Origin: a virus
Taxonomy: Duplodnaviria > Heunggongvirae > Uroviricota > Caudoviricetes
DNA: 48,639 nucleotides
Virus record (IMG/VR): IMGVR_UViG_2778261184_000002
Location: 1 to 48,639 of that record
Reading direction: 5' to 3' (one strand)
This document shows, one piece after another, positions 11,039-42,104 of this stretch. The stretch's first letter is position 1. Each line of letters begins with the position of its first letter. A program made the translations under genes and the position numbers. The notes under the pieces are model-generated. The model made no database searches. It saw only the letters and a list, made by a program, of their open reading frames with translations, and had not been told where the DNA came from.

Positions 11039-11642
11039 CTATCAAGAACTGCGCGAGGCGGCGGAACAGGCAACGCAAGATGAATGGGTAGCATATATTT
11101 TGCCGGGTCATAACGGCATTTATCCTGCGCGCACGTCTGAAGGTAGGCATTGCGGATACTTTATTGACTGGCCTGGCATTGATGGACAAAGGAATGCTGG
11201 TGCTAATGCTCGTTATATCGCTGCTATCCCACCAAAAGTTGCGTTGTCACTACTGGATGAAATTAAACGTCAGGAGGACTCAAATATTGATGCTATGTGC
11301 CGTGTTGCAGAGCTTGAAACTAATATCGCGGCGCTGGTGGCAGAGAACGCCGGACTGAAACACGCAATGGCCGTAACTCTTGAGCATGTGTCGGTAACGG
11401 ATGCAGGGCAGGCCGGAGTTGCTGCGATGATTATTAATGATGCCCTGCACCACAGCGAAACGCCAGCTACCGACGCTTTCCTGGCGGAAGTGCGGGCGCA
11501 GGGGGTGGATATGGCTCGTAACGCGATGATTGATTTTGTTGATGGTGAAGTTGGGCCAAACAAGAACGTTCCGGGGCTGATTAGAGGCGCAGAGATATGC
11601 GTAAGTATTGCTGAACAGCTTCGCAAAGGAGGCAACCAGTGA
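11025..11642 (+). CDS. Ea22-like mosaic protein (paralog 3)
   Basis: NYQELREAAEQA, NARYIAAIPPKVALSLLDE, PATDAFLAEV, AEQLRKGGNQ blocks. Confidence 0.5.
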   Translation: MSKINYQELREAAEQATQDEWVAYILPGHNGIYPARTSEGRHCGYFIDWPGIDGQRNAGANARYIAAIPPKVALSLLDEIKRQEDSNIDAMCRVAELETNIAALVAENAGLKHAMAVTLEHVSVTDAGQAGVAAMIINDALHHSETPATDAFLAEVRAQGVDMARNAMIDFVDGEVGPNKNVPGLIRGAEICVSIAEQLRKGGNQ

Positions 11643-11926
11643 GCGAAATTAATTACCAGGCACTGCGTGAGGCGGCGGAACGTGCAATTCCAGCAATGGA
11701 ACGCCTGTTAATGTTGCCAGCTGATGATGATTTGTTAAGTGAACAAGAACTTAAAGATTACGGTGTGGATATTGATGCGCTCAACGCCTTCAAATTTCTG
11801 GCCGGACCAGAAACCGTGCTGGCGCTGCTGGATGAAAACGAAAGACTGTGTCGCGAGCTGATAGCTCGTAATGGTGAGATTGAAGGGCTTCGGAAGTGGG
11901 CAGAAGAACGGGAGATGCAACCATGA
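11639..11926 (+). CDS. Ea22-like mosaic protein (short paralog 4)
   Basis: INYQALREAAERA and LALLDENERL blocks only. Confidence 0.45.
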   Translation: MSEINYQALREAAERAIPAMERLLMLPADDDLLSEQELKDYGVDIDALNAFKFLAGPETVLALLDENERLCRELIARNGEIEGLRKWAEEREMQP

Positions 11927-12600
11927 TGACTTTTACCAGCGAACAATTAGCTACCTTACGTAAGATAGCGCAACAGGCAACACAGGGCGAATGGCGTGCA
12001 TTCATCTCGCCGGACACTGGTACATATGCGGTGCATACACCTGGTGATAAACGATGTGAAGACGTTATCAAATGGACCGGCTTTGATGGACAGAACAACG
12101 CAGAGAACAACGCTCGTTATATCGCAGCTTTCAACCCTGAAGTAGTGCAGGCACTACTGGATGAACGGGAAAGAAACCAGCAATACATCAAATCCCGCGA
12201 CCAGGAGAACGAGGATATTGCACTAACAGTTGGGAAGCTGAGAGTTGAGCTGGAAGCCGCAGAGAAGCGCATAGCAGAACTGGAAACAAAAGCGAACCAG
12301 CAAACCAGAATAAGCGATAAGGGGCTGACAAAGCTGATTGCCGATGCTGACAAAATGCTGGGTATGCGTTCGCCGGTTATAGACAGCGAGTGGTGGACGC
12401 TTTTACGGCAGTTCCTGATTGAACTTCAGGATCGCCGCAGAAACAGCATTTCTGAATCTGGAATCCGTGCTGAAACCCTGAATGATTTAATCCGACATAT
12501 TGACAGAAACCTGGATATTGACGCGATGAAATCGCCGTTTGAACTGTCATCTGAAATTGTGGATTACGTTAATAGGCAACTGCACAAGGAGAATTCGTAA
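11923..12600 (+). CDS. Ea22-like mosaic protein (paralog 5)
   Basis: NARYIAAFNPEVVQALLDE and LRVELEAAEKRIAELE blocks; start placed at ATG 11923 overlapping upstream stop. Confidence 0.5.
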   Translation: MMTFTSEQLATLRKIAQQATQGEWRAFISPDTGTYAVHTPGDKRCEDVIKWTGFDGQNNAENNARYIAAFNPEVVQALLDERERNQQYIKSRDQENEDIALTVGKLRVELEAAEKRIAELETKANQQTRISDKGLTKLIADADKMLGMRSPVIDSEWWTLLRQFLIELQDRRRNSISESGIRAETLNDLIRHIDRNLDIDAMKSPFELSSEIVDYVNRQLHKENS

Positions 12601-12782
12601 TGCAGGTGGCATTTGTTGGCCTGTTACCGCATCCGATCCGCCTTTGGGCGGATATGTCACTCATAAAAACGCATTTTTTTACTACTGATGGCGGCATTCC
12701 GGCACCAAAGCGCCGCCATACCGGTATTGCAGCGGCACGACGAGCAGCAAAGAAACGCAAACGCAGGAGAACAAAACGATGA
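12600..12782 (+). CDS. Small protein with poly-basic C-terminus
   Basis: 60 aa ending KKRKRRRTKR; overlaps neighbours by ATGA/TAATG junctions. Confidence 0.3.
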   Translation: MQVAFVGLLPHPIRLWADMSLIKTHFFTTDGGIPAPKRRHTGIAAARRAAKKRKRRRTKR

Positions 12783-12955
12783 AAAACCGTAAAGCAAAAT
12801 TACTTCTTTTATCGCGTTCGACGGGGTACGAGAAGCTACCAATCAGCAATCACAAACGGGCGGTGATCGGCATGTTTGGTAGGGTGGTATTCGCATTTAA
12901 CTATAAACCCACCGCGTCGAGGAACAGACGAGAGAAGGGGTACGCAGTGCGATGA
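12779..12955 (+). CDS. Candidate small ORF, 58 aa, N-terminus MKNRKAK
   Basis: First 21 nt nearly identical to the start of ORF 12952; not in track (under 60 aa). Confidence 0.25.
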   Translation: MKNRKAKLLLLSRSTGYEKLPISNHKRAVIGMFGRVVFAFNYKPTASRNRREKGYAVR

Positions 12956-13143
12956 AAAACCGTAAGGCAAAGATGCTGATAGCAAAGCCCGGGCAGCGTA
13001 TCCGTATCTCAAATCGGCTTGTTATTTACTATAGATATCTGGGTTTTAGGGGGTGTTCCTCTATTCGTTTTTACGGTGTCTGGCGGAGCAGAAGCGCGGC
13101 GCAAAACCGCTGGAAAAACCACTTGCGCACTAAAGGAGAGTGA
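12952..13143 (+). CDS. Candidate small ORF, 63 aa, N-terminus MKNRKAK
   Basis: Shares duplicated start sequence with 12779. Confidence 0.3.
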   Translation: MKNRKAKMLIAKPGQRIRISNRLVIYYRYLGFRGCSSIRFYGVWRSRSAAQNRWKNHLRTKGE

Positions 13144-13144
13144 G

Positions 13145-13660
13145 ATGGCGTTAACACACCGCGAACTCTGTCAGATTGCGTACAAGTTCCTTAAGCGCAA
13201 CGGGTTCAAGGTTTGCTTTCATGACCGCTTTATAGCTGTAACCAGTACCGGAGAACAGCCAGATGCTATGGGATTCAGAAATTCAGCATCATGCTTGATA
13301 GAGGCGAAGTGTTCTCGTGCTGACTTGTTGGCAGATAGAAAAAAGCGTTTCCGTAAAAATCCGTCTCTTGGAATGGGCGACTGGCGATTCTTTATTAGTG
13401 AGCCGGGAATTATTTCAGTTGAGGATTTACCTCCCGGCTGGGGATTACTTCACGTTGTTAACGGAAGAGTACGGAAAGTACATGGATGGCCCAAGGGGAA
13501 TTGCTGTTGGGGTAATCCTGACGATAAGCCATTTACTGGGAATAAGCAGGTTGAATGCGATTACATGTTATCTGCATTAAGGCGCATGGAGCTAAGAGGA
13601 CACCTTAATGAAATATATGACGGTGTAATTGTTAATAAGAAAGAAGGAAACGCGGCATGA
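13145..13660 (+). CDS. PD-(D/E)xK-type nuclease candidate
   Basis: D...E-A-K arrangement (PDAMGF ... CLIEAKC); start placed at ATG 13145 with AAGGAGAG RBS instead of track start 13019. Confidence 0.4.
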   Translation: MALTHRELCQIAYKFLKRNGFKVCFHDRFIAVTSTGEQPDAMGFRNSASCLIEAKCSRADLLADRKKRFRKNPSLGMGDWRFFISEPGIISVEDLPPGWGLLHVVNGRVRKVHGWPKGNCCWGNPDDKPFTGNKQVECDYMLSALRRMELRGHLNEIYDGVIVNKKEGNAA

Positions 13661-14148
13661 CAACTTTAACCGACAAAGAAATGATTAAAGAAATCAAAGA
13701 GCGCATAGGCAGCCTGGACGTGCGAGACAATATTGAGCGCCGGGCTTATGAAATTGCTCTGGCATCGCTGGAAGCAGAGCCGGTGGCGTGGAAGGCAACC
13801 TTCACGCAAATTGACAATGAATATAATACGTTCACTGCTCTGTATTCTGACAAAGCAGAAGTCGAACGGTGGGTGCGACTGCATGAAATAGCTGACTTTC
13901 GGGCAGATATAACACCGCTTTATACAGCCCAACCAGCGCCGGTAGCTCCAGATGGTTGGATAAGCTGTAGTGAGCGAATGCCGAAAGGGTATGCTGATGT
14001 GTTAGTGACCGACGGAGAGCATGTCGAGGTTAAATGGTGGGATGAATCTGGGTATTGGAATAGTTGGCCGGAACTTAACTCAGATATCTTTGCCGATGAA
14101 ATAACTCACTGGATGCCGCTACCAGAACCGCCGCAGGAGGCGAAATGA
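13657..14148 (+). CDS. DUF551-like phage protein
   Basis: C-terminal W-ISCSERMPK...HWMPLPEPP signature. Confidence 0.55.
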   Translation: MTTLTDKEMIKEIKERIGSLDVRDNIERRAYEIALASLEAEPVAWKATFTQIDNEYNTFTALYSDKAEVERWVRLHEIADFRADITPLYTAQPAPVAPDGWISCSERMPKGYADVLVTDGEHVEVKWWDESGYWNSWPELNSDIFADEITHWMPLPEPPQEAK

Positions 14149-14405
14149 TGGATGTAAAAGAGAAGGTTTTGCAGGTGATGCGTTCCCGGGCTGCCCTGCA
14201 AGATAAAGCTCTCGGCGGGGAATATCCATTCACGATAGCAACCTGGAATCTGCGGTTGGCAATGGAGAAGGAATTTCCTGATGAAGAATGGCGCTCGGCA
14301 GATTTGCGCAAAATTCTTATGGAACTGGCTAAAGACGGAGCAGTATCCAAAGATACCTATGCCAGCCGGATTGGTCAGGCGGTATGGAGACTGGAGGTGC
14401 GGTAA
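14145..14405 (+). CDS. Hypothetical protein
   Basis: 86-aa ORF, coupled to neighbours. Confidence 0.4.
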   Translation: MMDVKEKVLQVMRSRAALQDKALGGEYPFTIATWNLRLAMEKEFPDEEWRSADLRKILMELAKDGAVSKDTYASRIGQAVWRLEVR

Positions 14406-14686
14406 TGGCTAACCTGCAACTTGCTGTCAAAGGTGAATACTTCGATGCCATGATTCGCGGAGAGAAAACGGAAGAGTATCGCCTGTGTAATGACTACTGG
14501 AATAAGCGAATTATGTTCCGCGAGTATGACCGACTGATTATCACAAAGGGATATCCGAAGCGCGACGATTCCAGTCGCAGAATTGATGTTCCGTATGACG
14601 GATATGAAATCAAGACAATCACACATCCGCACTTTGGAGAGAATCCGGTTAAGGTATTTGCGATAAAGGTTAATATCAATGGCTAA
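14405..14686 (+). CDS. ASCH/PUA-like small protein candidate
   Basis: N-terminal LAVKGEYFDAMIRGEKTEEYRL pattern; start at ATG 14405. Confidence 0.35.
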   Translation: MANLQLAVKGEYFDAMIRGEKTEEYRLCNDYWNKRIMFREYDRLIITKGYPKRDDSSRRIDVPYDGYEIKTITHPHFGENPVKVFAIKVNING

Positions 14687-15083
14687 ATTTCAAAGAAATA
14701 TTATTTTTCTGGCAATGTTATCTGCCTGTCATTTATCTCATGCATCGGTTATTGCTGCGGGAGCTGCGGCAACCGCTGTAATTAGCGCCTCAGCCGCCAG
14801 CGAGCATGAGCAACGTACTGCAATCAATGCATCTGCCAATACCACCACGGTATCAGTAACACAAGAAAAGCCGAATATCGGCTTTGTTACTTGTGGCAAG
14901 CGATATGGTGAAATGGTTGGCTCTCTTGGTTGCGTAATGTGGCAAGACGACGACCGAACAGAAATTCCGTGGAACTCATGGCCTGGCTACATTCTTGGTA
15001 AGAAGCTGCCCACCAGCTATGAAGTAAATGCTATTTCGTTCGACCAATATAACAGTGTTGCAACGGTCTATTTCTCTTATTAA
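14679..15083 (+). CDS. Secreted protein
   Basis: Signal-peptide-like N-terminus (IIFLAMLSACHLSHASVIAAGAAA). Confidence 0.45.
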   Translation: MAKFQRNIIFLAMLSACHLSHASVIAAGAAATAVISASAASEHEQRTAINASANTTTVSVTQEKPNIGFVTCGKRYGEMVGSLGCVMWQDDDRTEIPWNSWPGYILGKKLPTSYEVNAISFDQYNSVATVYFSY

Positions 15084-15095
15084 CACGGAGTAATT

Positions 15096-15389
15096 ATGTG
15101 GCGCGGTAATAATCATGGTGGAAGCCAGATGATACTTACCGAATATCAGCTCGACCACAAAACCAATAAATCACGCTCAGTATATTTGCTTCGGCACAAT
15201 AGCCGCGTAAGGAATACCGTGCTGGAGCAAAATCTGACCGTTGAAATGGATAATTCGGGGAACTTCAAGCCAACAATTTCGCTTGATGATTTTCCGCGTG
15301 GTTTAAGCGAAAGAGAAGCCATGCTGAAATTAGCAGAATGGCTTCAGAGGTTAAGTATTGTTATTGAAGATAACTGGAGTCAACCATAA
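15096..15389 (+). CDS. Hypothetical protein
   Basis: 97-aa ORF. Confidence 0.35.
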   Translation: MWRGNNHGGSQMILTEYQLDHKTNKSRSVYLLRHNSRVRNTVLEQNLTVEMDNSGNFKPTISLDDFPRGLSEREAMLKLAEWLQRLSIVIEDNWSQP

Positions 15390-15565
15390 TGAAAAACAGA
15401 AAGAAATTTTGGATTACTTTTTTGTTTGTATGCCTTTGCGGTTTATTTATTTTATTAGCTGGTGGTGTTAAATGGGGTACGGTGGGGTGTGGTTTTTGGA
15501 GCGGGGTTACTCTTTTCGCAGCCTGGCTTATCGCCAACTTTGAGTCAGGCGGAGGGTATTGGTAA
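15389..15565 (+). CDS. Candidate 58-aa two-helix membrane peptide (MKNRKKFWITFLFVCLCGLFILLAGG...)
   Basis: ATG overlaps upstream TAA; two hydrophobic segments; not in track. Confidence 0.3.
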   Translation: MKNRKKFWITFLFVCLCGLFILLAGGVKWGTVGCGFWSGVTLFAAWLIANFESGGGYW

Positions 15566-15587
15566 GTGGTCTTATTCCCCACTTCAT

Positions 15588-15641
15588 AACGGATATCACG
15601 CTCGTGATAACGGATATTCCAATTTTGATAACGGATAAGGC
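15588..15641 (+). repeat. Three direct repeats of ATAACGGATA at ~18-20 bp spacing
   Basis: cATAACGGATAtcac, gATAACGGATAttcc, gATAACGGATAaggc immediately upstream of ORF 15645. Confidence 0.6.
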
Positions 15642-15644
15642 CAA

Positions 15645-15854
15645 ATGAAGCATTTTTTAAGGTTGGCATTTGTTCTGGCGCTATTTGATCCTCCGGCTGC
15701 AATGGCTGGAGAACAGCAACATTGCACAAAAGAGAATGAACACCCTTTCATCGTTATTCAATGCGATGACGGAACGGTGACTGTGGTTAATGTAAGAAAT
15801 GACCGTGTAGCTGTTTGCCGTAAAGGCGAACCATGCAAGGAAATAAAACTATGA
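15645..15854 (+). CDS. Small secreted Cys-containing protein
   Basis: 69 aa; signal peptide LAFVLALFDPPAAMA; four Cys. Confidence 0.4.
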   Translation: MKHFLRLAFVLALFDPPAAMAGEQQHCTKENEHPFIVIQCDDGTVTVVNVRNDRVAVCRKGEPCKEIKL

Positions 15855-16609
15855 CAAGAATCACTAAAGAGCGTATTTCAGATATTATTTCCCGTATCGA
15901 AATGTATGGTCACGGTGCTGGATATACGGCAGATGAAGTATTGGCACTTGCCCAAATGGCTTTGGCGGCTTGCAAAGATGATAAAAAAATGAAGCTTATC
16001 GACTTGTTAGTGAAGGAGCTGCCTAAGTGCGGCGGGTGGCCTGATGGTATGATCGATTGTCGCCTGCTCAGTGCCAATTTAATGGCGCCATGCGCGACTT
16101 TTGCTTTTGGCTCAGACCACAAAAAAGACACGTTCTTTGGGTGCAATTTTTGTTATGAGATTGAGCTTCCAATTGGTGACCTTGATAGCGATGAATACCT
16201 GTCAGTTGTCACTCGCGAACAATACGAATCAGCTCTCATAGCGTCGCAGAAAGTCGAGTTCAATGGTGATGAACTTGAAAGTAAGACTTACAGGTTGGAT
16301 TTTGGGCAATGGCTGGAACAGCAACGCGGGAAAATCGATGTGGACTGTGGTTGTGTGTCCACTGAAACATTCATGCACTGGCTGCGGGTAGCTTACGAGG
16401 CTGGCAACCATCCGGATTTTCCGGATAGTTCCCAACAATCGCCCAAGAAAAGCGTAAAAACCACTCTGGAAAGAGGCTATCTTGAGGCCGCATTAAAGAT
16501 TAAGCCGGGCCATACGCTAGGCGTCATTGATGCCATGTTGGTTCATGAAATGGCGAAGGCTTTATTGCCGCTGGTGGCTGATAAAATTCCGAATAAAGCC
16601 GATATCTGA
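15851..16609 (+). CDS. Hypothetical Cys-rich protein
   Basis: Start at ATG 15851 overlapping upstream stop (ATGA). Confidence 0.45.
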   Translation: MTRITKERISDIISRIEMYGHGAGYTADEVLALAQMALAACKDDKKMKLIDLLVKELPKCGGWPDGMIDCRLLSANLMAPCATFAFGSDHKKDTFFGCNFCYEIELPIGDLDSDEYLSVVTREQYESALIASQKVEFNGDELESKTYRLDFGQWLEQQRGKIDVDCGCVSTETFMHWLRVAYEAGNHPDFPDSSQQSPKKSVKTTLERGYLEAALKIKPGHTLGVIDAMLVHEMAKALLPLVADKIPNKADI

Positions 16610-16620
16610 TCACCATGCTA

Positions 16621-16651
16621 AAATCCCCTCAATTCACAGAGGGGATTTTTG
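16621..16651. terminator. Rho-independent terminator
   Basis: ATCCCCTC-aattcaca-GAGGGGAT followed by T5. Confidence 0.7.
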
Positions 16652-16921
16652 TATATGTTGCATAGAGTTTTATGGAAAAGCGTTATTGTCGGCGCGATAC
16701 TGGCTATATCTGGGTGTGCAATGGTGCAATACAACGACGGTGAAAAGGTAAGCATACAGTCAGATGGTTGGTATGGCCTGGATAGCCTGCAAAAAACCGC
16801 AGATAAAGCCTGTCAGCAATATGGGAAGTCTAAAGCAGTATATCAGCATAGCGCGAACGCTAACCCTCATCTAGCGCCCGGTTCTGGTGTTCAGAATACC
16901 ATCTGGAAATGTGAGCCTTAA
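16649..16921 (+). CDS. Lipoprotein candidate
   Basis: Lipobox-like LAISGC after a hydrophobic N-terminus. Confidence 0.5.
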
Positions 16922-16923
16922 AT

Positions 16924-17175
16924 ATGAGCGACTGGAATATTGCAGCTAAAAGTCAGGAAGAACGGGATAAGGTTAACGTTGATCTGGCTGCCAGCGGTGT
17001 GGCGTACAAAGAGCGATTGAACATACCTGTCATAGCTGAACAGGTAGCCCGCGAGCAACCAGAGAATCTGCGCACCTATTTCATGGAACGGCTACGGCAC
17101 TACCGGCAGTTAAGCCTCCAGTTGCCAAAAGGGAGCGATCCGGTGTATCAGAACGAGGATGCACCAAAAAAATAA
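16924..17175 (+). CDS. Hypothetical protein
   Basis: 83-aa ORF. Confidence 0.4.
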
Positions 17176-17260
17176 CGGCAAGATGGGGGAGAAATGTGAT
17201 TAGCCCCCAGCGTGGCGCGCCTACAAACCCCGCTTTCACAAACTATTCCTTTTCAATGTA

Positions 17261-28964: not shown

Positions 28965-29040
28965 TGGTGGCCCCTACCGGATTTGAACCGATGACCGTGC
29001 GATTATGAGTCGCCTGCTCTAACCACTGAGCTAAGGGGCC
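28965..29040 (-). tRNA. tRNA-Ile (anticodon CAU, lysidine-type ileX-like)
   Basis: GGCCCCTTAGCTCAGTGGTTAGAGCAGGCGACTCATAATCGC...GGTTCAAATCC...GGGGCCACCA; clean cloverleaf, encoded CCA. Confidence 0.9.
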
Positions 29041-29482
29041 AATTAGTTTTTATTTTCGACGTCTGAGATTCTTCGTAACTTGTTCTATTCCGTAGACGAT
29101 CACAAGTAGAAACAGCAAAGACCATCCAGGGTTCTTATCGATATACGTCCAAAAATCCATCATTAGTTCCTGTGTTCACCTTACAGCACTGCCACTGAAA
29201 CCAACTATCCGAACAGTAGTTGTCACTCAATAGACGTGACGTATTTATTAGGTTGCGGTGCCGGGTGCCTCCCGGTGCCTGGCGAAGGTTGCACGCCAGG
29301 CGGGTGAGTATCCACAGAAGGCCGACTGTCAGTCTCAACCTTGACCCGCGTGCGCTTAGCCGCATTCACCGCAATGGTAAGAGCACTTGGCTGGCTGGGC
29401 GGCGATGATGCCTGTACGCATTTGGTGATCCGGTTCTGCTTCCGGCATTCGCTTAATTAGCCAAATACTCTTAACGTTGCGC

Positions 29483-29569
29483 TGGCGGAGAGTAATGGAA
29501 TCGAACCATCATCGCTTGCGCAATGGGACGGTTTTCAAGACCGCTTGAGCACCATGCTCCCTACTCTCC
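29483..29569 (-). tRNA. tRNA-Ser (anticodon UGA), class II with long variable arm
   Basis: GGAGAGT...CGGTCTTGAAAACCG anticodon arm, T-arm GATGGTTCGATTCCATT, acceptor ACTCTCC-G-CCA. Confidence 0.85.
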
Positions 29570-29714
29570 GGCCGTTGTGGTGGCCGGTACTGAATCTCCG
29601 GCATACGGTGCAGCCAATTAGGACTACGGACGATCACCGCTCGCGAAAGGGAAGGTTTGCGGCCGCATTTCCCTAACATCCAAGAAAGCTATCGCATCAG
29701 TCTGCGAATCCACC

Positions 29715-29806
29715 ACAACGTTGAGAACACTGGTTGTCACGCTGCAACGCAACATTTATTCGTAGATTGGGATATGACCCCGTTACGTCAGTGTTCTCAA
29801 CGTTGT
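29715..29806. repeat. Perfect 18-bp inverted repeat (ACAACGTTGAGAACACTG / CAGTGTTCTCAACGTTGT) with 56-bp loop
   Basis: Arms 29715-29732 and 29789-29806, inside the tRNA cluster. Confidence 0.8.
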
Positions 29807-30034
29807 AGTACCGGTTACGGTTCCGGCCAGGCCTCTTCCTCAACGGGGTATTCTCCATACGGACTACCGTTTATTGGTCGTTCCTGCGGTTTATGTTGTG
29901 AAGCCAGATGCTTATCTTCTGGTTGCTTCAAAGAGCTGCACTTCATCACAACGGTAAGGGTACTTCGTAGGGATTCGAACCCTCTGCCAAGCACGGCGAT
30001 CTCCGACGTCGCAAAATACCCTTACCTGTTGTGT

Positions 30035-30110
30035 TGGTGCCGATTAACGGACTCGAACCGCTGACATCCTGCTTACAAGGCAGGCGCTCTACCAACTGAG
30101 CTAAACCGGC
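30035..30110 (-). tRNA. tRNA-Thr (anticodon UGU)
   Basis: GCCGGTTTAGCTCAGTTGGTAGAGCGCCTGCCTTGTAAGCAGG...GGTTCGAGTCC...ATCGGCACCA. Confidence 0.9.
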
Positions 30111-30112
30111 AT

Positions 30113-30189
30113 TGGCGATGGTGGGTGGATTCGAACCACCGACCGACAGCTTAGAAGGCTGCTGCTCTATCCTACTGAGCTACACCATC
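30113..30189 (-). tRNA. tRNA-Arg (anticodon UCU; reads rare AGA/AGG)
   Basis: GATGGTGTAGCTCAGTAGGATAGAGCAGCAGCCTTCTAAGCTGT...GGTGGTTCGAATCCACC-CACCATC-G-CCA. Confidence 0.9.
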
Positions 30190-33442: not shown

Positions 33443-33754
33443 CTATAGAAAGACGGGATATCCCTTCTTTTGGCCCTCTGCCACCATTTTTATTGCCGTC
33501 CTTATGCCTCGCAGACCGCCGTTTGGAGTGGCGTGTGTATGCTCATACACATAGCGCATATTGCGATACAACCAATCCAGGACGCGTACCTGCTCGTAAT
33601 GCTCATGGTTCCTTTTGATTAGATCTGGGTTTTTCTCCAGTTCTCTGAGAGCTGCGGCATGTGGGGATGTTTCAGAATATTCACTGCGACGCCTTCTTTT
33701 TCTCGCTATTTTTCTAACACACCCATTGATAGTAAATAAGCGAAATAATAACAA
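33443..33754 (-). CDS. Uncertain ORF
   Basis: Track ORF whose first codons overlap an operator-like motif (33704-33719); true start unclear. Confidence 0.2.
   Translation of the reverse strand: MLLFRLFTINGCVRKIARKRRRRSEYSETSPHAAALRELEKNPDLIKRNHEHYEQVRVLDWLYRNMRYVYEHTHATPNGGLRGIRTAIKMVAEGQKKGYPVFL
33704..33719 (-). promoter_or_regulatory. Operator-like motif copy, degenerate (TGTTAGAAAAATAGCG, minus strand)
   Basis: Left half conserved. Confidence 0.3.
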
Positions 33755-33893
33755 CTGCGTTAGATTTGTAAAACAAGAGAGATACTACTCAAGGCTGGGC
33801 TATATGCAACAGGTCGGATTTGCTTTTAGAGTAAAAAGTGACCTTAATCAACAAGGAGGGTAAATCGCATGGCATTTACCCAACTTGTTATTT

Positions 33894-34154
33894 TTAAAGG
33901 TTTATTTTATCCGGTTCGGATATTTCTGTGATTGTCTTGTCGATTGCGATCAACCACCCTTCATAGGTTAAATCATCAACAAGCTCTACCAGTTTGTCTT
34001 CTGTATGAGGGAAGTATACCCAGCTCCAGCTCGCTGGGTTTTCTGCTTTTCGCAGCGTAAAAACCTTCTTGTAACGGTGAAACTCAAGGACATACCCCTT
34101 CGATATGGAATATTCCTTTAGGTCTTCGACCGTAAACCTACGATTCTTTCGCAT
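33894..34154 (-). CDS. Hypothetical protein
   Basis: 86-aa ORF downstream of DarB-like gene. Confidence 0.45.
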   Translation of the reverse strand: MRKNRRFTVEDLKEYSISKGYVLEFHRYKKVFTLRKAENPASWSWVYFPHTEDKLVELVDDLTYEGWLIAIDKTITEISEPDKINL

Positions 34155-34156
34155 GG

Positions 34157-34591
34157 CTACCCCATGATTCGATATTTCTCTATTGACTCGTCGTAACTTG
34201 TGTACACGTATGGCTCTGTATCATCAGCATAAGGTGCGACTTCCAGAGCATGAACGGGATTGTACACCGCGTCATTTTCCAGGCGATCGCTCGAATACAG
34301 ATGCCCAGCCAAAACCGTAAGCGCCGGGCGACTCATTTTGTAGATCTCTGCCACATCACTATCTACAACTTGTCCAAATGATATGTCGCCGCGCTCCAGC
34401 AATATCGTTTTGAGCGCGGGCCACCACGGACCATAAAGGTGATAAAGCTGTGGATTTTTCTTCAGTCTTTCTACCATGCCATCAAGATAAACTGTCAGGT
34501 ATTCTTCTTCACTCCTGCCATTGAGTGCCTGCGGCAAGATTTCCTCAAGGTAGGATTCCGTCGGTTTTACAGTGTCAATTAGTGTCGTCAT
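34157..34591 (-). CDS. Hypothetical protein
   Basis: 144-aa ORF. Confidence 0.45.
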   Translation of the reverse strand: MTTLIDTVKPTESYLEEILPQALNGRSEEEYLTVYLDGMVERLKKNPQLYHLYGPWWPALKTILLERGDISFGQVVDSDVAEIYKMSRPALTVLAGHLYSSDRLENDAVYNPVHALEVAPYADDTEPYVYTSYDESIEKYRIMG

Positions 34592-34627
34592 TCAAATTCG
34601 GCCCCGGTTGGGGCCGCTCCTTATCTG

Positions 34628-37600
34628 TTAGGCCGCATCGGCGATTATTTTACGCAGTTCATCTACCGAGTAACGCGTAGATACCATCCACGCCGGACGG
34701 TCAAAGTTCACATCAGCAACCGGGTTTGCTTCAAAATTCCAGAAACGCCCGCCAATCTTCTTAATCGCGTCTTTGGCGTTCCGTATTGTCGAGGAACCTG
34801 GCTGGTCGGCAATGAGATAAACCGCGCCAACGTCTTCGCTGACGCTCCACCAGCGCCCGCGAACACGCGCCTTAGCGCGAATCGGCTTATCATTAACCAC
34901 AATGATATAGTCATCATTCGCCGCTTCATCAGCTCTGGCTTCAGCCACTGCCGCCTGCTCTTCTCTTTTGCTTTCAGCCTGCTCAAGCCTTTCCGCGATC
35001 TCTGATTCAGTGGCCCCGCCGTTTTTCAGCGATACATAGTCCTGCCACGTTGCCGATTTGAGCGCATCCGGCAACTCATTCACATAGTCGCCGTCTTTCA
35101 ACTCACGGGCGCGACGGGTGGCCATTTCTACCAGGCGATTAACAGAAACAGCATCAGCAAAATCGTCCTTACTAATGTGTTTTTCATCAAATGCATTGAT
35201 GACAGCCCCCACCTTAATCCACTGCGCTGCTGGCGAATCCAGAGGATTATCGGCCTGAACAATGGCTAATTTCGCTCCATCGACACCATTATTAGCCAGC
35301 TGCTCCAATGCCGACCAGCCATCGGCATCGCTGAGTGATTTATATTGCTCAAACAATGCATCGCGCCAGGCCACCAGCGCAGCTCGTGTTTTCTCAATTT
35401 TCGCCGTAATTTTCGCGGCCTTCACCTGATTAAACATCCGTTCAATGTCATCAGTGTTGCTAAAGGCTTTCATCCTGCCCTGGAATAAACGGTATGCCAC
35501 CACGGTCTTCCAGAAAGATTCCAGCCCTTCTCCGGACGGTTTACGGAACAGGCTAAGAATATCTTCAGAAGTAACTTTATTAAGTGAGCGACCGGACAAA
35601 CCACGCCCTGCCATCCAGTTTTCAAACTCCTGGGAAACATCATCCATCGTGGCCTGTGACCCCCATGCCTGCATTCCCTGGATGTAATCATATCCATACA
35701 ATGCCTGGAGGAATCCCTCGCCGTCCACGACATTCAGCGGGTTATCACTGGCTTGTATTTTTGCCACTTCACGCTTCAGCGCCTCATCGTTGCCATCAGG
35801 GTAAATCCACCGCTCAGGCGCTATATCCGATGCTCGCCCGATTTTTTGACCTATTACGCCATCATAAGCCGATGACAGTGCAATCTGACCATCATCGGTG
35901 CGATAAGCCCAGTATTTAATAGCTGAACCACCGCCCCATACTCTACCAGGCTTCCCGGCAGTGACATTCATTACCCCATTGCGAATAGCATCATAGAACT
36001 GATCGCGCGTAAGTGTTGTTGATAGCTGGTGGCATTGAACACCACGTGCAGCTGTTTCACGCGATTCTGCAACTCCCTCTTCAAAGGTTACCGATTCAAT
36101 TATCAGGTTAAAGGGCAAAAATAATGCCGTCCCCGGAGAACGAGAGTAACGACTAGCCACATCCAGCCAGGATATGCGGCACGTACACCCGCCCCTTTCC
36201 GCATCAATGGCTGTAACACGAACAATTGCTGTCGTATTGTGATTCTCATCGATGATCGCGCGATAATGGCTGCCCTTGTGCAACAAGATATTTTTCTCAG
36301 TGCGTACATACTCCTGTGGGTTCTGCAATACATCGGCATCAAGCTCCAGAACCCCGGCTTTAATCGCACGTTCCAGATCACCACGAGAACGTTTCATAAC
36401 GGTGTCAGCGTCTTTAGCTCTGGTGATCGCAAAGCGTAGCTCCCGCACACGTTTTCTGTAGTCTCGCAACTGTTCCAGAACATATTTCTGCCCGTTCCTG
36501 TTCGTCCCCGCTTTAATCAGGTCGTCAAGATTGCGCTGGTAATGCTCTACCTGCTCCATCGCGCTTTTCAGTTCTGTCTCCATCATGCCGATATCTTTCC
36601 CGGCAGCATTCGCCGCTTTCAGGTAGTTATCGAGAGCATTATTGGCTTCGCGTAGGGCTTTCAGTTTCAGACGTTCTTCACGCTCTTGCGCCTGACGAGT
36701 CATGATTGCACGGCGTTCTTCCGGATTTGCCGCCAGCATAATGGCGCGTTCATCTGCGTCATCCGCATCACCATTGGCGATCTCTGACATGTCGGAGGTC
36801 ATCACCATATTGATCCAGTCCTTCTTACGTTTCAGCGTATCCAGACGGAAGTCATCAAATGTGCCTTTGCCACAATAGTAGTGAACATTGACCTTTTCTT
36901 GTGGTGAGCCTACCCGAGCGCCGCGCCCATTACGTTGGTCGATACTGGCAGGAGTCCAGGGTAGTGTCAGATGGTGGATATCGGTTGTCCCGATGTGCAA
37001 GTTAATACCTACTTCAGCCTTCTTGTTACAGATTATGATGCGCGTGCGACCTTCGTTATAGTCGGCGGCAATACCTTCCATGCCCTCAAGGCCAGCATCA
37101 TTTTTAGCTGAGAGATAATCCTCATATTGGGCAAGTTTGCTGTAGTAGGTTTCCCATGCACCTTCTTTGTATTCACCGTTTTTATTTGGCGTAGGTTCAG
37201 TCGGCTTATTCACCTTCTTCAGCTTGACGCCGCCAGCCTGGCTAACTGTCGTCGCATTGATAATGCCTATCTCCTGCTCCGGCATTTGCAGTGCACTGGC
37301 AATAATACGGCGCAGCTTCTGGTGCTGGGCTTTTTCATCAATGAAGACGATTTGTTTACCGTTCTTCAGACCTTCACGAAGGTTTTCGATCAGCGCGGCA
37401 TACTTCGGCGGGATGGGGTGTGATACCTGCTGCATATCAATACCGGCAGCCGCAATGGCCTTCAGTATTTCAGCTTCCAGTTCAATGCCAGCACGTATTT
37501 CAACATGCGACGGATGTTCGCTAAAGGTGGTCTTCACTACCTTGCTGGTACGCGTACTTACCAGCCCACCAGCGCCATCTTCTTCGGCCTCGTCTGCATC

Positions 37601-40600
37601 ATCTGCCACTTTACCGCCAGCTACTTTTGGCAGGGCATCAGCAATAGCTTTTACCTTGTCTGCAAGCTCAACGGGGAACTGGAATGTAATCGCACTGGCA
37701 TACAGATCAGGATCTATAGCAACCTTATCCATGTCGCGGATGATGGAGAAGATGAAATCATCCGGTTTTTCGTTTGTGATATGCCCGTTTTCATCGACCG
37801 TCAGCGCATCTTTACTACTTAACTCCTGTGCACGCTTACGAAGTTCTTCGTAAATGGCCTCTTGCTCTCCTGTCATCGGGATCTGCAAGGTATTCTCGAC
37901 AATATCAGGGATTTTTACCGTCGCCCCGACGTCCGCAGCAGTCTTCAGAGTAGTCCAGCGATGGAAAATACCACGCAGACCATCCAGGTTCTGGAAGCCC
38001 ACCAGTCCCTGCTTCTCTTCCACCTCACCGGAAATTTTCTGAACCTGAACTGTGGCTGTTTTACCGAACACGCGAACGAAATCATCCGGCGTAACAATAC
38101 CCATGCGCATCCACTCTTCCTGCGGAATGACAGTAGACAGCATGTTGAAAGCATCAATCGGGCTGTTCACCAGCGGTGTTGCCGTCAGCATAACCACACC
38201 ACGCCCGTTGTTGCGTTTCATCATGTACGCAGCTTTTACAGCCATGTCGCGGGCCATTTTGGATACTGCCGGGTTAGGCAAATATGCCAGTTGCCCCGCT
38301 TCGCGCCCGGCGCTAAAGGAGTTGCGGTAGTTATGCCCTTCGTCGGCAATTACGCTATCGAAGTTCATATCCTCAAAATACGGGATATTCTGCTTCTTCG
38401 TTGTACCGGTATTTGCGGCCTGGTCCTTAATCTTGTTCTTCTTCTGCGCGTCACGGTGTTTGCCAGATGCCAGGTCAAGACGCCCCATTTCCACAGCATT
38501 AAAGACCGCTTGCTGTGAGTTTTCCTCAATGGTTTCTTCTCGTAGCGGGATAGACGCGAATTGCTCTTTTGTCATGATGACCGTTCGCCAATTTGACGAC
38601 GGGATCATGTTCATGCGCTGAACGATAACGGCGCTGGCGGACTCTTTCACAACATTTCGGGTAAGAGCCTGCCCGTTACTGTCGAGGCGTGGTTCGCCAT
38701 TTTCATCAAGCACCGGCGCGGTCAGAATATTTCCGCTGTCATCACGAACTTCATCCAAACCGATAAACATCATATTGGCGAAGGCATCAGCACTGTAGAA
38801 ACTCTGTGCCTCGTGATACCAGTTCTGATAAACCGCCTTCGGAACAACAATACACGTGCGTTTAGTGCGACCTGTTTCGAAGTTATACGCCTCAAGCGCA
38901 AGCGCGGTCGTGGTTTTACCCAGCCCGGTGCCAAATCCCATGATGCCGCGCCCATCTTCTGATAAGCGACGAACTTCTTCATTCTGATAAGTCAGAGGAA
39001 TGCGCTTCCCACTAATCCCCTCCAGGCCAAGCGGTGCGTCAGAATGCGTAAACGGGATGAAGCCATTAAATGCGTCGTTATAGTCGCGGGCTATCTGATC
39101 AGCCTGCGGGTGAGTGCGTAACCAGTCGTTGAAGCTAATTTCCAGTTGAGCAATCTTATCCAGGTACTCGTTAGCGTTCTGCCCACGCGGTTTAATGCCG
39201 TTCAGGTAGTTTTCTAACTGGTTCAGGAAGCCGTCTTTATTGTTGGCCTTCTTGAACTCATTCCCGTTTTTGCCGTTTACGGTTCGTAGTTGATAGCCAG
39301 TAAATACCCCGTCCTTACCTTCGTAATCGTCCGGAGATACCAGAATGCCGTCCTCAACCTTAAGGTCGGGTTCTGTATACTTAAACTCGTCATAGCCCTG
39401 CTCTGCCAGGAACTCTTTTATCAAGCGGCGATCCAGCCAGCGGGCGTTCAGATTAACGGTGACTTTATTTAGTGGCGTGAAAATGCGTTTCTCTTCGATT
39501 TTCGCCAACTGACGCTCAAAGTTCGCTTTCTGCTCACCTGTTGACGCATCACGCCAGCCCACCAGCAATGCTGTTTTGGTTGCAATATCGCCGCTGGTGG
39601 CGCGGTCCATCGGCAGCAGGCAGCCATACCCATCAATAGCGATATCATCAAATTTCGCCAGGTATTCCAGAGCAGCATCGTCGTCTCCTGGCAGTTCGCC
39701 AGCAAACGCCTCACGAAAATCGTCCAGTGTGATTGGATTAAGTGCCACGTCACTGAAAAGGTGGGTTACAACTTGTTCCGGGCGTGTAAAGTCAATACCG
39801 GCAGCACCATCCGTTACATCAAGTCGTCCAGCAAGGAGGTCAGAAGCAGAGCCGTCCTGTTTCACGTTGCCAGTGAAAGTCATCCAGTTTTTAGCGCCAG
39901 CTTCAGCAATCCCATTCAGCTTAATCGCGTGCGGCGGACCATACTTCGCAATTTCGGCTTCCGCCAGGCGCGCGGCATCAGCAAGTACATCATCAACATT
40001 TTCCCCCAGATTACGCTTATCAAGCGCCTTGTTGATCAACTGCCCTATCAGTGCGCCGCGCATAACGCGTTCTCTGTCTTTTTCTCTCTGCTTGCCAGCA
40101 AAGCGAATCATTGCCGCTACTTCATCACTGATAACCGATGGATAGTCGGACGCGATCGCCGATATCTGGTCCCATGACAACGCCAGAATGCCATTTGTTG
40201 ACTGAAACGCGATCTGCAGATCACCAAACGTCGTAACACCATATCGATTTACATCAAGCGCGGAGGATTTGGTTGTCGCGTCCTTGACCCATTTCAGACC
40301 ATCAAACTCATGCCAGATGCCGCCTACAAGGCGTTTATCGCCCACTTTCGCGCCCTGCCATGCCTGAGTAGTTACGCCAAGCAAATCCCAATTAATGCGG
40401 CTTTCAAAGCGGCGCGATAGAGCGGTTTTCATCGACTCATTGGATACACGACCGTCCTTTTTCACCACCAGGGTATTGCGGAAGCTGGTACGCTCCATAT
40501 CGCCGTAAACAAATCGCTTCCCTTCGGTTGTAAACCATTTTCCTTTGAGGAAGGTATCCCAAAGGACGTTTGCCGATTTGAGCGTTGCATCATCCGTGTC

Positions 40601-41467
40601 GGGGATCATCTCCAGGAAGGTTTCCGGGTGTTTACGCAATACCCATACGTCCACCACGGTATCTGTACCGGATTCGCTGAACGTACCAGAAGGCATACGA
40701 TGTGCGCCCAAAAATTCCGCTTTACGGCTGACTTTATCGCGCAATTTTTTGTATTTCGTACCATCGGTCATGCCATTCGGCACCACCAATACAATTAGTC
40801 CACCAGGTTTAACCTTGTCGATCGTGCGCAACACAAAGTAATTGCCAACGTTCTTCTCGTTTGCATATGCCGGATCAAGCCCGGCAACGCCGGAACGCCC
40901 TTCACCAAACGGTACGTTACCAACAGCGTGGTCATACATTGCGTCTTTCGCCGCCAGCGCCTCAAACGCCCCGATATTCACATCGTCTTCCGGGTGCAAA
41001 AGCTGGTTTATTCGACCGGAAATCGGAGACAGTTCGGCGCTGGTCATTATCATGCCCTGCCGTTTTGTCTCCTGGAAAATACCTGTGCCCGCTGATGGTT
41101 CCAGTACGTGCCCACCATCAATACCGTAGTCAGCAAACAGATCCCATATACCTTCAGCCATAAACTGTGGCGTGTAGTATTCGTATTGGCTGCCCTCACC
41201 ATCTGTCAGGCCGCCCTCACCGGTATACCCGGCAAGAATCTGACGTTGTTCGTCAGTTAATTTCGCCCCATCGAAGCCGGGCGGAAGGGAATTAAGAAGA
41301 TTTACTGCGGCATTGTTTGCTGCCCGGCGTGTTTTCTGAATACTGACGCCATCGGCTTTCCTGACGCCAAAGGTCGCAACAGCACGTAATTTATGCAACC
41401 GACTAACAATTTCAATCAGTTCGCCTAAGCTGGAGGCTTCACTGATTGAATGAAGTAGTTTGTCCAA
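34628..41467 (-). CDS. darB: DarB-like giant protein: N-terminal N6-adenine methyltransferase-like domain plus SF2 (DEAH/SNF2-type) helicase core
   Basis: 2279 aa; MTase motif I LEPSAGTGIF and motif IV-like GNVPFG; helicase Walker A GFGTGLGKTT, DEGH box (VIADEGHNY), motif VI QRNGRGARVG; apparent TTG start with GAGGGGG RBS. Confidence 0.8.
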   Translation of the reverse strand: MDKLLHSISEASSLGELIEIVSRLHKLRAVATFGVRKADGVSIQKTRRAANNAAVNLLNSLPPGFDGAKLTDEQRQILAGYTGEGGLTDGEGSQYEYYTPQFMAEGIWDLFADYGIDGGHVLEPSAGTGIFQETKRQGMIMTSAELSPISGRINQLLHPEDDVNIGAFEALAAKDAMYDHAVGNVPFGEGRSGVAGLDPAYANEKNVGNYFVLRTIDKVKPGGLIVLVVPNGMTDGTKYKKLRDKVSRKAEFLGAHRMPSGTFSESGTDTVVDVWVLRKHPETFLEMIPDTDDATLKSANVLWDTFLKGKWFTTEGKRFVYGDMERTSFRNTLVVKKDGRVSNESMKTALSRRFESRINWDLLGVTTQAWQGAKVGDKRLVGGIWHEFDGLKWVKDATTKSSALDVNRYGVTTFGDLQIAFQSTNGILALSWDQISAIASDYPSVISDEVAAMIRFAGKQREKDRERVMRGALIGQLINKALDKRNLGENVDDVLADAARLAEAEIAKYGPPHAIKLNGIAEAGAKNWMTFTGNVKQDGSASDLLAGRLDVTDGAAGIDFTRPEQVVTHLFSDVALNPITLDDFREAFAGELPGDDDAALEYLAKFDDIAIDGYGCLLPMDRATSGDIATKTALLVGWRDASTGEQKANFERQLAKIEEKRIFTPLNKVTVNLNARWLDRRLIKEFLAEQGYDEFKYTEPDLKVEDGILVSPDDYEGKDGVFTGYQLRTVNGKNGNEFKKANNKDGFLNQLENYLNGIKPRGQNANEYLDKIAQLEISFNDWLRTHPQADQIARDYNDAFNGFIPFTHSDAPLGLEGISGKRIPLTYQNEEVRRLSEDGRGIMGFGTGLGKTTTALALEAYNFETGRTKRTCIVVPKAVYQNWYHEAQSFYSADAFANMMFIGLDEVRDDSGNILTAPVLDENGEPRLDSNGQALTRNVVKESASAVIVQRMNMIPSSNWRTVIMTKEQFASIPLREETIEENSQQAVFNAVEMGRLDLASGKHRDAQKKNKIKDQAANTGTTKKQNIPYFEDMNFDSVIADEGHNYRNSFSAGREAGQLAYLPNPAVSKMARDMAVKAAYMMKRNNGRGVVMLTATPLVNSPIDAFNMLSTVIPQEEWMRMGIVTPDDFVRVFGKTATVQVQKISGEVEEKQGLVGFQNLDGLRGIFHRWTTLKTAADVGATVKIPDIVENTLQIPMTGEQEAIYEELRKRAQELSSKDALTVDENGHITNEKPDDFIFSIIRDMDKVAIDPDLYASAITFQFPVELADKVKAIADALPKVAGGKVADDADEAEEDGAGGLVSTRTSKVVKTTFSEHPSHVEIRAGIELEAEILKAIAAAGIDMQQVSHPIPPKYAALIENLREGLKNGKQIVFIDEKAQHQKLRRIIASALQMPEQEIGIINATTVSQAGGVKLKKVNKPTEPTPNKNGEYKEGAWETYYSKLAQYEDYLSAKNDAGLEGMEGIAADYNEGRTRIIICNKKAEVGINLHIGTTDIHHLTLPWTPASIDQRNGRGARVGSPQEKVNVHYYCGKGTFDDFRLDTLKRKKDWINMVMTSDMSEIANGDADDADERAIMLAANPEERRAIMTRQAQEREERLKLKALREANNALDNYLKAANAAGKDIGMMETELKSAMEQVEHYQRNLDDLIKAGTNRNGQKYVLEQLRDYRKRVRELRFAITRAKDADTVMKRSRGDLERAIKAGVLELDADVLQNPQEYVRTEKNILLHKGSHYRAIIDENHNTTAIVRVTAIDAERGGCTCRISWLDVASRYSRSPGTALFLPFNLIIESVTFEEGVAESRETAARGVQCHQLSTTLTRDQFYDAIRNGVMNVTAGKPGRVWGGGSAIKYWAYRTDDGQIALSSAYDGVIGQKIGRASDIAPERWIYPDGNDEALKREVAKIQASDNPLNVVDGEGFLQALYGYDYIQGMQAWGSQATMDDVSQEFENWMAGRGLSGRSLNKVTSEDILSLFRKPSGEGLESFWKTVVAYRLFQGRMKAFSNTDDIERMFNQVKAAKITAKIEKTRAALVAWRDALFEQYKSLSDADGWSALEQLANNGVDGAKLAIVQADNPLDSPAAQWIKVGAVINAFDEKHISKDDFADAVSVNRLVEMATRRARELKDGDYVNELPDALKSATWQDYVSLKNGGATESEIAERLEQAESKREEQAAVAEARADEAANDDYIIVVNDKPIRAKARVRGRWWSVSEDVGAVYLIADQPGSSTIRNAKDAIKKIGGRFWNFEANPVADVNFDRPAWMVSTRYSVDELRKIIADAA

Positions 41468-41560
41468 AGGATTTCCCCCTCTAAACCGTAAAAAATTCCG
41501 CTATGCGGTACGGTTGAGAGGGTATGGAGAATGTTATTTTCAGGGGGACGATACTACCGT

Positions 41561-41574
41561 CAAAATCACATACT
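41561..41574 (+). promoter_or_regulatory. Candidate late-promoter element CAAAATCACATACT
   Basis: 44 bp upstream of CHAP-hydrolase ATG; near-identical element (CAAATCACATACT) 41 bp upstream of the portal-like gene on the minus strand (47578-47590). Confidence 0.3.
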
Positions 41575-41618
41575 CCCCATAGTTTGCCTACTTATTAACC
41601 CATGACCGGGAGAAAAAT

Positions 41619-42104
41619 ATGGCAAACATTGAACCTCGCTGGCTAATTGAAGCCCGTAAGCACATTGGCCTGACTGAAATAAAAGGCGCTAAACACAACC
41701 CTGAAATCGTTCAGTTCTGGCGCGACATCAAGCGCGGCGGAATTAAAGACGATGAAACGCCGTGGTGCGCAGCATTTGTCGGTGCAATGCTGGAACGTGT
41801 AGGCATCCGCTCAACAAGATTTGAGTCGGCAAAATCCTATCTGGATTGGGGCGAGAAATTAGATACACCGGCATACGGATGTATCGTTGTATTTACCCGC
41901 GTAGGCGGTGGGCACGTAGGCTTCGTTGTCGGACGCCGTGCCAATGGCGATCTGCTTGTCCTGGGTGGGAACCAGGGGGATGCTGTTAATATTCGCGCAT
42001 TCCCAACATCAAGAGTGTCTGGCTATCGCTGGCCTGCTGGCGAACCACGCAATACCGCTCTGTTACCAGTCGGAGACGCAGCAACCTCAACTAATGAGGC
42101 ATGA
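41619..42104 (+). CDS. CHAP/NlpC-P60-type cell-wall hydrolase (endolysin-like)
   Basis: 161 aa; catalytic-Cys context PWCAAFVGAML and His context GGHVGFVVG. Confidence 0.6.
   Translation: MANIEPRWLIEARKHIGLTEIKGAKHNPEIVQFWRDIKRGGIKDDETPWCAAFVGAMLERVGIRSTRFESAKSYLDWGEKLDTPAYGCIVVFTRVGGGHVGFVVGRRANGDLLVLGGNQGDAVNIRAFPTSRVSGYRWPAGEPRNTALLPVGDAATSTNEA

Follow-up and report, generated by a model that had tools for sequence, protein, structure and literature searches.

A probable DarB antirestriction gene with a TTG start codon in a D6-like, P1-group phage-plasmid

The stretch of DNA analysed here (the window) comprises the 48,639 nucleotides of the IMG/VR virus record IMGVR_UViG_2778261184_000002, and is a D6-like, P1-group phage-plasmid of Escherichia coli. 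On its minus strand, at positions 34628–41467, we found an open reading frame (ORF) of 6840 nt that runs from a TTG start to a TAA stop and encodes a protein of 2279 residues, very probably the ortholog of the P1 antirestriction protein DarB; the assignment was based on the ORF list, the identity with D6 orf15 and P1 DarB, and the matches with phrog_1685 and phrog_10089. The initial annotation had described this region as a single 6.8-kb ORF of DarB-like architecture followed by two small genes, and the list of ORFs contains all three exactly as described, the smaller ones at 34157–34591 (144 residues) and 33894–34154 (86 residues), also on the minus strand.

The encoded protein is 95% identical over its full length to orf15 of phage D6 (ASR76325.1, MF356679; 93% at the nucleotide level), which is annotated in GenBank as "defense against restriction; similar to P1 gene darB". 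In a megablast search of phage records, D6 was the sole full-length relative, and the darB genes of P1, P7 and SJ46 matched the window gene at the nucleotide level only over an island of approximately 170 nt. At the protein level, BLASTP against P1 DarB (AAQ13985.1, 2255 residues) returned one alignment extending from residue 1 to the C-terminus with 40% identity and 1518 bits; by region, the identity was 46–68% in the methyltransferase and helicase cores and 18–25% in the last ~680 residues. Among the PHROGs, phrog_1685 was matched end-to-end and phrog_10089, labeled 'DarB-like antirestriction', at 4e-78. The DarB identity suggested by the initial annotation stands because this full-length similarity to P1 DarB goes well beyond generic methyltransferase and helicase motifs.

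The comparison with both phages revealed shared and distinctive traits. D6 orf15 has the same TTG, the same ribosome-binding site and the same neighbours (the ulx-like orf14, orf13 and the CHAP hydrolase orf16), but it differs by a mosaic patch at codons ~1701–1800, and several E. coli plasmids are closer to the window gene than D6. P1 DarB is collinear with the window protein along its full length, shares the LPD36–methyltransferase–SNF2 arrangement and identical catalytic motifs, and its gene also has ulx directly downstream; it differs in its overall divergence, which is most pronounced at the C-terminus, and in starting with ATG instead of TTG. At least 80% of the gene was present in 113 plasmid records, of which the closest are 99.6% identical at the DNA level (e.g., NZ_CP029365, an 89-kb E. 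coli plasmid), and the 90%-identity protein cluster that holds this allele contains 4384 sequences; the RefSeq label for the protein is only 'SNF2-related protein'. The gene, its start codon and its assignment as DarB are therefore already known, since they are in GenBank for D6 and near-identical copies are abundant, and our result amounts chiefly to identifying the gene correctly, not to discovering it.

To describe the architecture of the protein, we used a family alignment of 37 DarB homologs with 36–99% identity. Residues ~40–300 (40568–41350) comprise an LPD36-like helical region and a gamma-class N6-adenine methyltransferase, as judged from motifs, the AlphaFold model and Foldseek. In this region the TP motif EYYTP (96–100), motif I LEPSAGTG (122–129) and motif IV NVPF (184–187) were invariant in the family. 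The Pfam N6_Mtase model scored 20.2 bits, just below its cut-off of 20.4 bits, and the only sequence-level match in the PDB was the HsdM structure 7eew (E = 9e-4). The AlphaFold model of residues 1–820 showed a mean predicted local distance difference test (pLDDT) of 85, and its best Foldseek matches were HsdM subunits of type I systems (3ufb at 1e-9, 7eew, StySJI M, and EcoKI M 2ar0/2y7c), followed by BsaXI, PacII, M.BseCI, M.TaqI and CamA. The methyltransferase-like domain recognised in the initial annotation is thus supported by invariant motifs and by an HsdM/TaqI fold, with a borderline Pfam score.

A linker region of mixed alpha/beta structure follows (residues ~301–815, 39023–40567); it has no Pfam match, a column conservation of 0.45–0.66, and was modelled with confidence. 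Residues ~816–1560 (36788–39022) correspond to an SNF2-type superfamily 2 (SF2) helicase/translocase core, where the Pfam families SNF2-rel_dom (9e-14), ResIII and Helicase_C were all above cut-off. The characteristic motifs were recognised as Q828, Walker A GTGLGKT (846–852), motif II DEGH (1042–1045), motif III TATP (1095–1098) and motif VI QRNGRGAR (1511–1518), and within them Q828; G848, G850 and K851; D1042, E1043 and H1045; A1096-T-P1098; and Q1511-RNGRGAR-1518 were invariant, in line with the SF2 core proposed in the initial annotation. Column conservation in the enzymatic cores was 0.7–0.85. Pfam searches with residues 1–110, 290–820, 1200–1470 and 1560–2279 found no family.

This arrangement agrees with the 'DNA methylase–helicase dyad' of polyvalent proteins, for which DarB is the archetype, with an N-terminal LPD36 with GxGU, TP and NPP(Y/F)-type motifs, and an SWI2/SNF2 ATPase (Iyer et al. 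2017, PMC5512222). In the window protein the sequence GEGG at 83–86 corresponds to GxGU, the adenine methylase motifs are EcoKI/TaqI-like, and the SWI2/SNF2 domain lies on the C-terminal side. Unlike the dyad in general, this gene belongs to a P1-group subfamily of uniform size (2200–2320 residues) with a C-terminal module of its own, and the larger multi-effector polyvalent proteins belong to podophages and conjugative elements. The resemblance to HsdM (EcoKI M 2ar0/2y7c; V. vulnificus 3ufb/7eew) is structural, with Foldseek E-values of 1e-9 to 5e-7, a probability of 1.0 and the same order of gamma-class motifs. In contrast with HsdM, the domain lacks both HsdS and HsdR partners as well as the HsdM_N Pfam domain; it is joined to an SNF2 motor, shows a sequence identity of 14–20%, and would be carried in the virion, as known from P1.

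The sequence GAGGGGG (41475–41481, minus strand), a strong Shine–Dalgarno element that is also present in D6 and in plasmid NZ_CP029365, lies 7 nt (AAATCCT) upstream of the TTG at 41467–41465. An in-frame TAG is located 12 codons 5' of this TTG (41503–41501), and no ATG, GTG or TTG occurs in frame between them. The next in-frame candidates are a TTG at codon 24, which has no ribosome-binding site, and an ATG at codon 103. In D6, the TTG and the ribosome-binding site are identical and the GenBank coding sequence begins at that TTG; the same start was called by RefSeq PGAP on NZ_CP029365, and the N-termini of the DarB family agree within 0–9 residues in the alignment. The TTG read as start in the initial annotation is the one in use in both databases. 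P1 darB has ATG at the homologous codon, and among 13 loci this codon was TTG in three, GTG in four and ATG in six. Non-ATG starts were thus present in 7 of the 13 relatives examined, with TTG in the D6-like alleles and GTG in four other lineages. These starts may limit the translation of the giant DarB protein. An open frame of 2279 codons at ~50% GC cannot be explained by chance, and the ratio of nonsynonymous to synonymous substitutions (dN/dS) against D6 was 0.09 overall, with dS ranging from 0.03 to 1.6; therefore, darB is under strong purifying selection.

The region upstream of the gene did not provide a clear promoter. No match to the P1-type late promoter consensus AAGTGAYTW-N4-TANNNT, derived from P1 LPlyz and LPpro, was found in the 151-bp intergenic region between darB and the CHAP-domain gene. 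The nearest late-promoter-like element, ATGTGATTT-N6-TAGTAT at 41571–41551, was rejected given its wrong spacing, and its 9-mer is not significantly enriched. A sigma-70 scan upstream of darB yielded only a 9/12 match at 41563–41536, which was also discarded, promoter-like sites being no commoner than in shuffled sequence. The window encodes a C1 repressor homolog (the D6 orf1 equivalent), and a consensus of the P1 C1 operator had no match in the window at up to three mismatches.

In P1, DarB's 30 N-terminal residues suffice to direct a reporter to the capsid (PMC9024508). The equivalent codons 1–30 of the window gene occupy 41378–41467 (minus strand) and align position for position with P1, with 8 of 30 residues identical; a Ser/Thr-rich motif followed by hydrophobic residues is present family-wide at residues 12–25. 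By analogy with P1, this segment would target the protein to D6-type capsids. Initiation at codon 24 or 103 would remove it.

The 144-residue ORF at 34157–34591 (minus strand) is the ortholog of ulx: its product is 48% identical to P1 Ulx (E = 3e-46), matches phrog_1629 ('Ulx-like anti-restriction') at 4.9e-59, and corresponds to D6 orf14, annotated as ulx-like. In each of the 12 lineages examined, a ulx ortholog adjoins darB. The P1 Ulx protein is present in virions and assists in the localisation of DarB, and it is needed together with DarB against EcoB and EcoK (PMC9024508, PMC12810830). The initial annotation had suggested that both small downstream genes might be accessory factors. This is correct for the first of them, since it is Ulx and hence a true Dar accessory factor; the 86-residue gene at 33894–34154 (minus strand) is probably not one, and instead resembles P1 lxc.

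The relationship of this second gene (D6 orf13, 'hypothetical') with P1 lxc (bof) was traced through intermediates. Direct BLAST of the 86-residue protein against P1 Lxc showed no similarity, and a narrow profile against Lxc alone gave a probability of 0.35%. A gene encoding 82–92 residues follows darB–ulx in every enterobacterial lineage examined, and these proteins form a connected BLAST network in which the window protein is linked to that of locus L007 (1.6e-11), L007 to L012 (1e-6), L012 to L011 (1e-6) and L011 to Lxc (1e-38), with additional links between L013 and Lxc (2e-7) and between L014 and the window (7e-6). When the two halves of this network were compared profile against profile with hhalign, using a partition picked by hand by the analyst, a probability of 97.3% was obtained (E = 2.4e-11, 72 columns); the extended D6-side profile, with the intermediates, against the Lxc sequence alone gave 81.5% (E = 1e-5). 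An Lxc profile built from database homologs was discarded, as most of its matches turned out to be P1 Lxc copies that were frameshifted or incomplete. Lxc/Bof is a modulator of the C1 repressor according to its GenBank note, and lxc follows ulx in P1. That the 86-residue gene is remotely homologous to P1 lxc, whose position it shares, is therefore a well-supported inference from sequence.

The darB–ulx spacer (34592–34627, minus strand) contains AAGGAG (34622–34617), a hairpin CGGCCCC-AACC-GGGGCCG (34616–34599, ΔG = −16.2 kcal/mol) and 7 nt up to the ulx ATG. We compared the junctions of the window and of loci L001, L002, L006–L009 and L011–L014, and a hairpin of −13 to −17 kcal/mol was found 5–10 nt before the ulx ATG in all 11 lineages with a spacer. 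It covaries, with at least six different stem sequences and CG/GC swaps at every stem position; the base pairs were tabulated from individual folds because the MAFFT alignment of the intercistronic hairpins mis-registered the stems. In 10 of the 11 lineages, the 5' arm borders directly on a GGAG/AGGA box, and in L009 the box follows the hairpin. The absence of a U-tract after the hairpin rules out a canonical terminator. A similar arrangement is known in the split ribosome-binding sites of T4 genes 38 and 25 (PMC3014915), in which a stable, phylogenetically conserved hairpin is found between the Shine–Dalgarno sequence and the AUG; at ulx, such a structure would shorten a linear spacing of 25 nt to 7 nt. 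Unlike the T4 sites, the ulx hairpin is a predicted structure directly after the darB stop codon, and it could equally be a 3' stabiliser of the messenger RNA or an attenuator of the darB message. In L012 (8350–8847), the gene caller began the ulx homolog at an ATG within the conserved hairpin (165 residues), and the homologous start, MATLLDT..., is 27 nt downstream. An Rfam scan of 33700–41700 produced one chance match only.

The C-terminal third of DarB (residues 1561–2279, 34631–36787, minus strand) constitutes a DarB-specific module formed by a predicted coiled coil, a Tudor/SH3-like barrel, and helical and terminal alpha/beta domains. It is the least conserved and fastest-evolving part of the protein, with a column conservation of 0.27–0.44, as compared with the values of the enzymatic cores, and relatives that are 93–98% identical over the first 820 residues are only 73% identical over this third. 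An exhaustive HMMER search with the C-terminal segment against 1.84 billion representative proteins retrieved only 35 matches. The long ones are DarB-sized (2,192–2,316 residues), and the others, from 45 to about 1,650 residues, were read as fragments of DarB-sized proteins. AlphaFold modelled this third with a pLDDT of 88 and a predicted template modelling score of 0.62, with a long coiled coil and a small beta-barrel, together with a helical and a terminal alpha/beta domain; apart from the small Tudor/SH3-like barrel, the C-terminal ~700 residues had no detectable fold relatives.

Within this region, codons ~1701–1800 (window ~36070–36370) showed 66% amino acid identity to D6, with a dS of 1.6 and a dN/dS of 0.15, as compared with a dS of 0.03–0.6 elsewhere in the gene, and the patch coincides with the predicted small Tudor/SH3-like barrel. 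Because the high dS is accompanied by a dN/dS of only 0.15, positive selection was ruled out, and the pattern indicates recombination with a divergent allele.

The function of the protein was interpreted in light of what is known for P1. Of the six Dar proteins that enter the P1 procapsid, DarB comes last, after Hdf and DarA, and each virion contains ~40 copies of it; the Dar proteins exit together with the DNA and protect no DNA other than that packaged with them, and DarB, Ulx and DdrB are needed against type I systems of the EcoK/EcoB type (PMC9024508, PMC12810830, PMC12707154). With orthology, architecture, invariant motifs, start codon, ulx linkage and selection all established here, we consider it very likely that this gene of a D6-like, P1-group phage-plasmid is orthologous to P1 darB and that its product, of ~250 kDa, would be a virion-packaged antirestriction protein, as extrapolated from P1. 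Several observations weigh against this interpretation. Incorporation into the virion and the antirestriction phenotype have been demonstrated only for the P1 protein, the mechanism of which is termed undefined in reviews and primary papers (PMC11109961, PMC12707154). The similarity of the N-terminal 30 residues to P1 is limited to the 8 identical positions, and P1 residues 6–10, implicated in packaging, are not conserved. With 18–25% identity to P1 in the C-terminal third, the range of targets may differ, and the window contains no Dar genes other than darB and ulx. In addition, part of the historical evidence from the cloned gene is confounded by a DNA-mediated alleviation of restriction, considered below.

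In the mechanism that we propose, DarB would be translated from the TTG behind its strong ribosome-binding site, and its N-terminal ~30 residues would direct it into the procapsid, for which Ulx and Hdf/DarA/DdrA/DdrB would be required. Tens of copies would be ejected with the DNA, protecting that DNA in cis from type I (EcoK/EcoB-type) restriction. As the most likely basis of protection, the SNF2 motor would translocate along the duplex as it enters, and sites would then be modified by the HsdM-like N6-adenine methyltransferase fused to it, or else the complex would occlude them from type I enzymes or displace these enzymes. We infer this enzymatic mechanism from the motor–methylase model of Iyer et al. 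(PMC5512222), which is favoured because the catalytic residues of both enzymes are invariant while the rest of the protein drifts.

A purely passive shield is less likely than this model. According to this alternative, DarB protects by its mere bulk on the DNA or by acting as a decoy for type I complexes, and its methyltransferase and ATPase chemistry is dispensable. A 2025 review assigns Dar to 'protein-mediated physical shielding' and regards its mechanism as unclear (PMC12707154), protection acts only in cis (PMC5512222, PMC12707154), and the HsdM fold of the methyltransferase could mimic or compete with the methylase cores of type I systems. We nevertheless regard it as rather improbable, since the invariance of the S-adenosylmethionine-binding, NVPF, Walker A/B and motif VI residues across the 37 homologs, while the flanks drift, is hard to explain without selected catalysis.

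It was also considered that antirestriction could arise in part from the darB DNA and not from the protein, through a Chi-provoked, RecBCD/RecA-dependent and ClpXP-mediated alleviation of restriction. This effect has been demonstrated for cloned P1 darB, which has 11 Chi sites: the plasmid-borne gene relieved EcoKI restriction through its DNA (Chi and EcoKI sites), even with a premature stop codon (PMC11109961). The window darB contains six Chi sites (34847, 35371, 36025, 37566, 39559 and 39593), and the whole 48.6-kb window contains 39 copies of Chi (GCTGGTGG) on both strands versus 1.3 expected; P1 is also reported to be Chi-rich (PMC11109961). However, the enrichment is window-wide and not specific to darB, the effect is known from multicopy plasmids and not from an infecting phage, and a DNA-only effect leaves unexplained both a 2279-codon ORF with a dN/dS of 0.09 and the cis-only protection conferred by virion proteins. 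This explanation is thus very improbable. EcoKI sites (AACN6GTGC) are not depleted in the window (5 versus 6.3 expected).

Least credible, and likewise very improbable, is that the protein is the motor–methylase of a prophage-encoded defence or restriction–modification system (of the type ISP, BREX or DISARM kind) that protects the lysogen and not the infecting DNA: although the helicase C-lobe has weak NCBIfam matches to DISARM DrmD (1e-11), DpdE and a Dnd restriction enzyme, the Foldseek methyltransferase matches include LlaBIII, a type ISP enzyme, and enzymes of types I, III and ISP likewise combine a methyltransferase with an SF2 motor (PMC5512222), the scores are far under the NCBIfam cut-offs (43.8 versus 610 bits for DrmD), Pfam found no nuclease domain, the partner genes of defence systems are absent and the neighbours are phage genes, so that membership of DISARM or of a type ISP system was rejected, and the full-length orthology to a virion protein, the ulx linkage, the head/packaging context and the PHROG DarB-like antirestriction match all speak for DarB.

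Returning to DarB as a virion-borne antirestriction protein, its C-terminal ~700 residues could be the specificity module, and the expression of Ulx relative to DarB may be set by the covarying hairpin, acting as a split ribosome-binding site; we put this combined proposal forward as a speculation that is unlikely as it stands. The idea of a specificity module is based on the fast evolution of the region, its recombination, its restriction to DarB-sized proteins and their apparent fragments, and the lack of fold relatives other than the barrel. If it were correct, the sets of type I or BREX systems countered by D6-type DarB and by P1 DarB would differ, and the swapping of alleles in the C-terminal region would represent a mechanism of the arms race.

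Phage-plasmids of the D6-like kind, all with this antirestriction gene, are widely distributed in E. coli, Shigella and Salmonella; given the RefSeq label, the functional name DarB is worth propagating. The map of invariant catalytic residues, the variable and recombining C-terminal third and the high-confidence models of the N- and C-terminal parts may help in the design of experiments. Two modestly important annotations are new: orf13 as an Lxc-like gene, and the conserved hairpin where ulx translation would start.

Regarding the genomic context, D6 belongs to the P1-group plasmid prophages, and others that are D6-like have been described from both Salmonella and E. coli (PMC6799933). From D6 coordinate 68876 through the origin of the record to 26291, the window and D6 are collinear, with a few segments replaced. 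The D6 genome carries ddrB, ddrA, darA and hdf; the end of the window corresponds to D6 coordinate 26291, 42 bp short of ddrB, and the darA operon of D6 is thus beyond the right-hand end. The darB gene is found among phage head and packaging genes. Divergent from it, on the plus strand at 41619–42104, is the CHAP-domain gene equivalent to D6 orf16, a putative peptidoglycan hydrolase. The gene directly upstream of darB is the portal gene in P1 (prt) and in most other lineages; in the D6 lineage, including the window, the CHAP hydrolase, an anti-repressor, icd and repL separate darB from pro/prt.

A segment of ~6 kb (11056–17203) is almost without a D6 counterpart, save for one match of ~190 bp. 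Two Ead/Ea22-like proteins and one DUF551 protein are encoded there, besides several ORFs without a Pfam match, and the segment resembles variable, lambdoid-type cargo of the early region. Four tRNA genes (Met-CAT, Ser-TGA, Thr-TGT and Arg-TCT) are located at 28965–30189 on the same strand as darB (minus). In the corresponding cluster of D6 (L001, 17270–17975), Asn-GTT is found in place of Arg-TCT and the Met gene is lacking; the strand given by ARAGORN for the D6 tRNAs is opposite to that in the D6 GenBank feature table.

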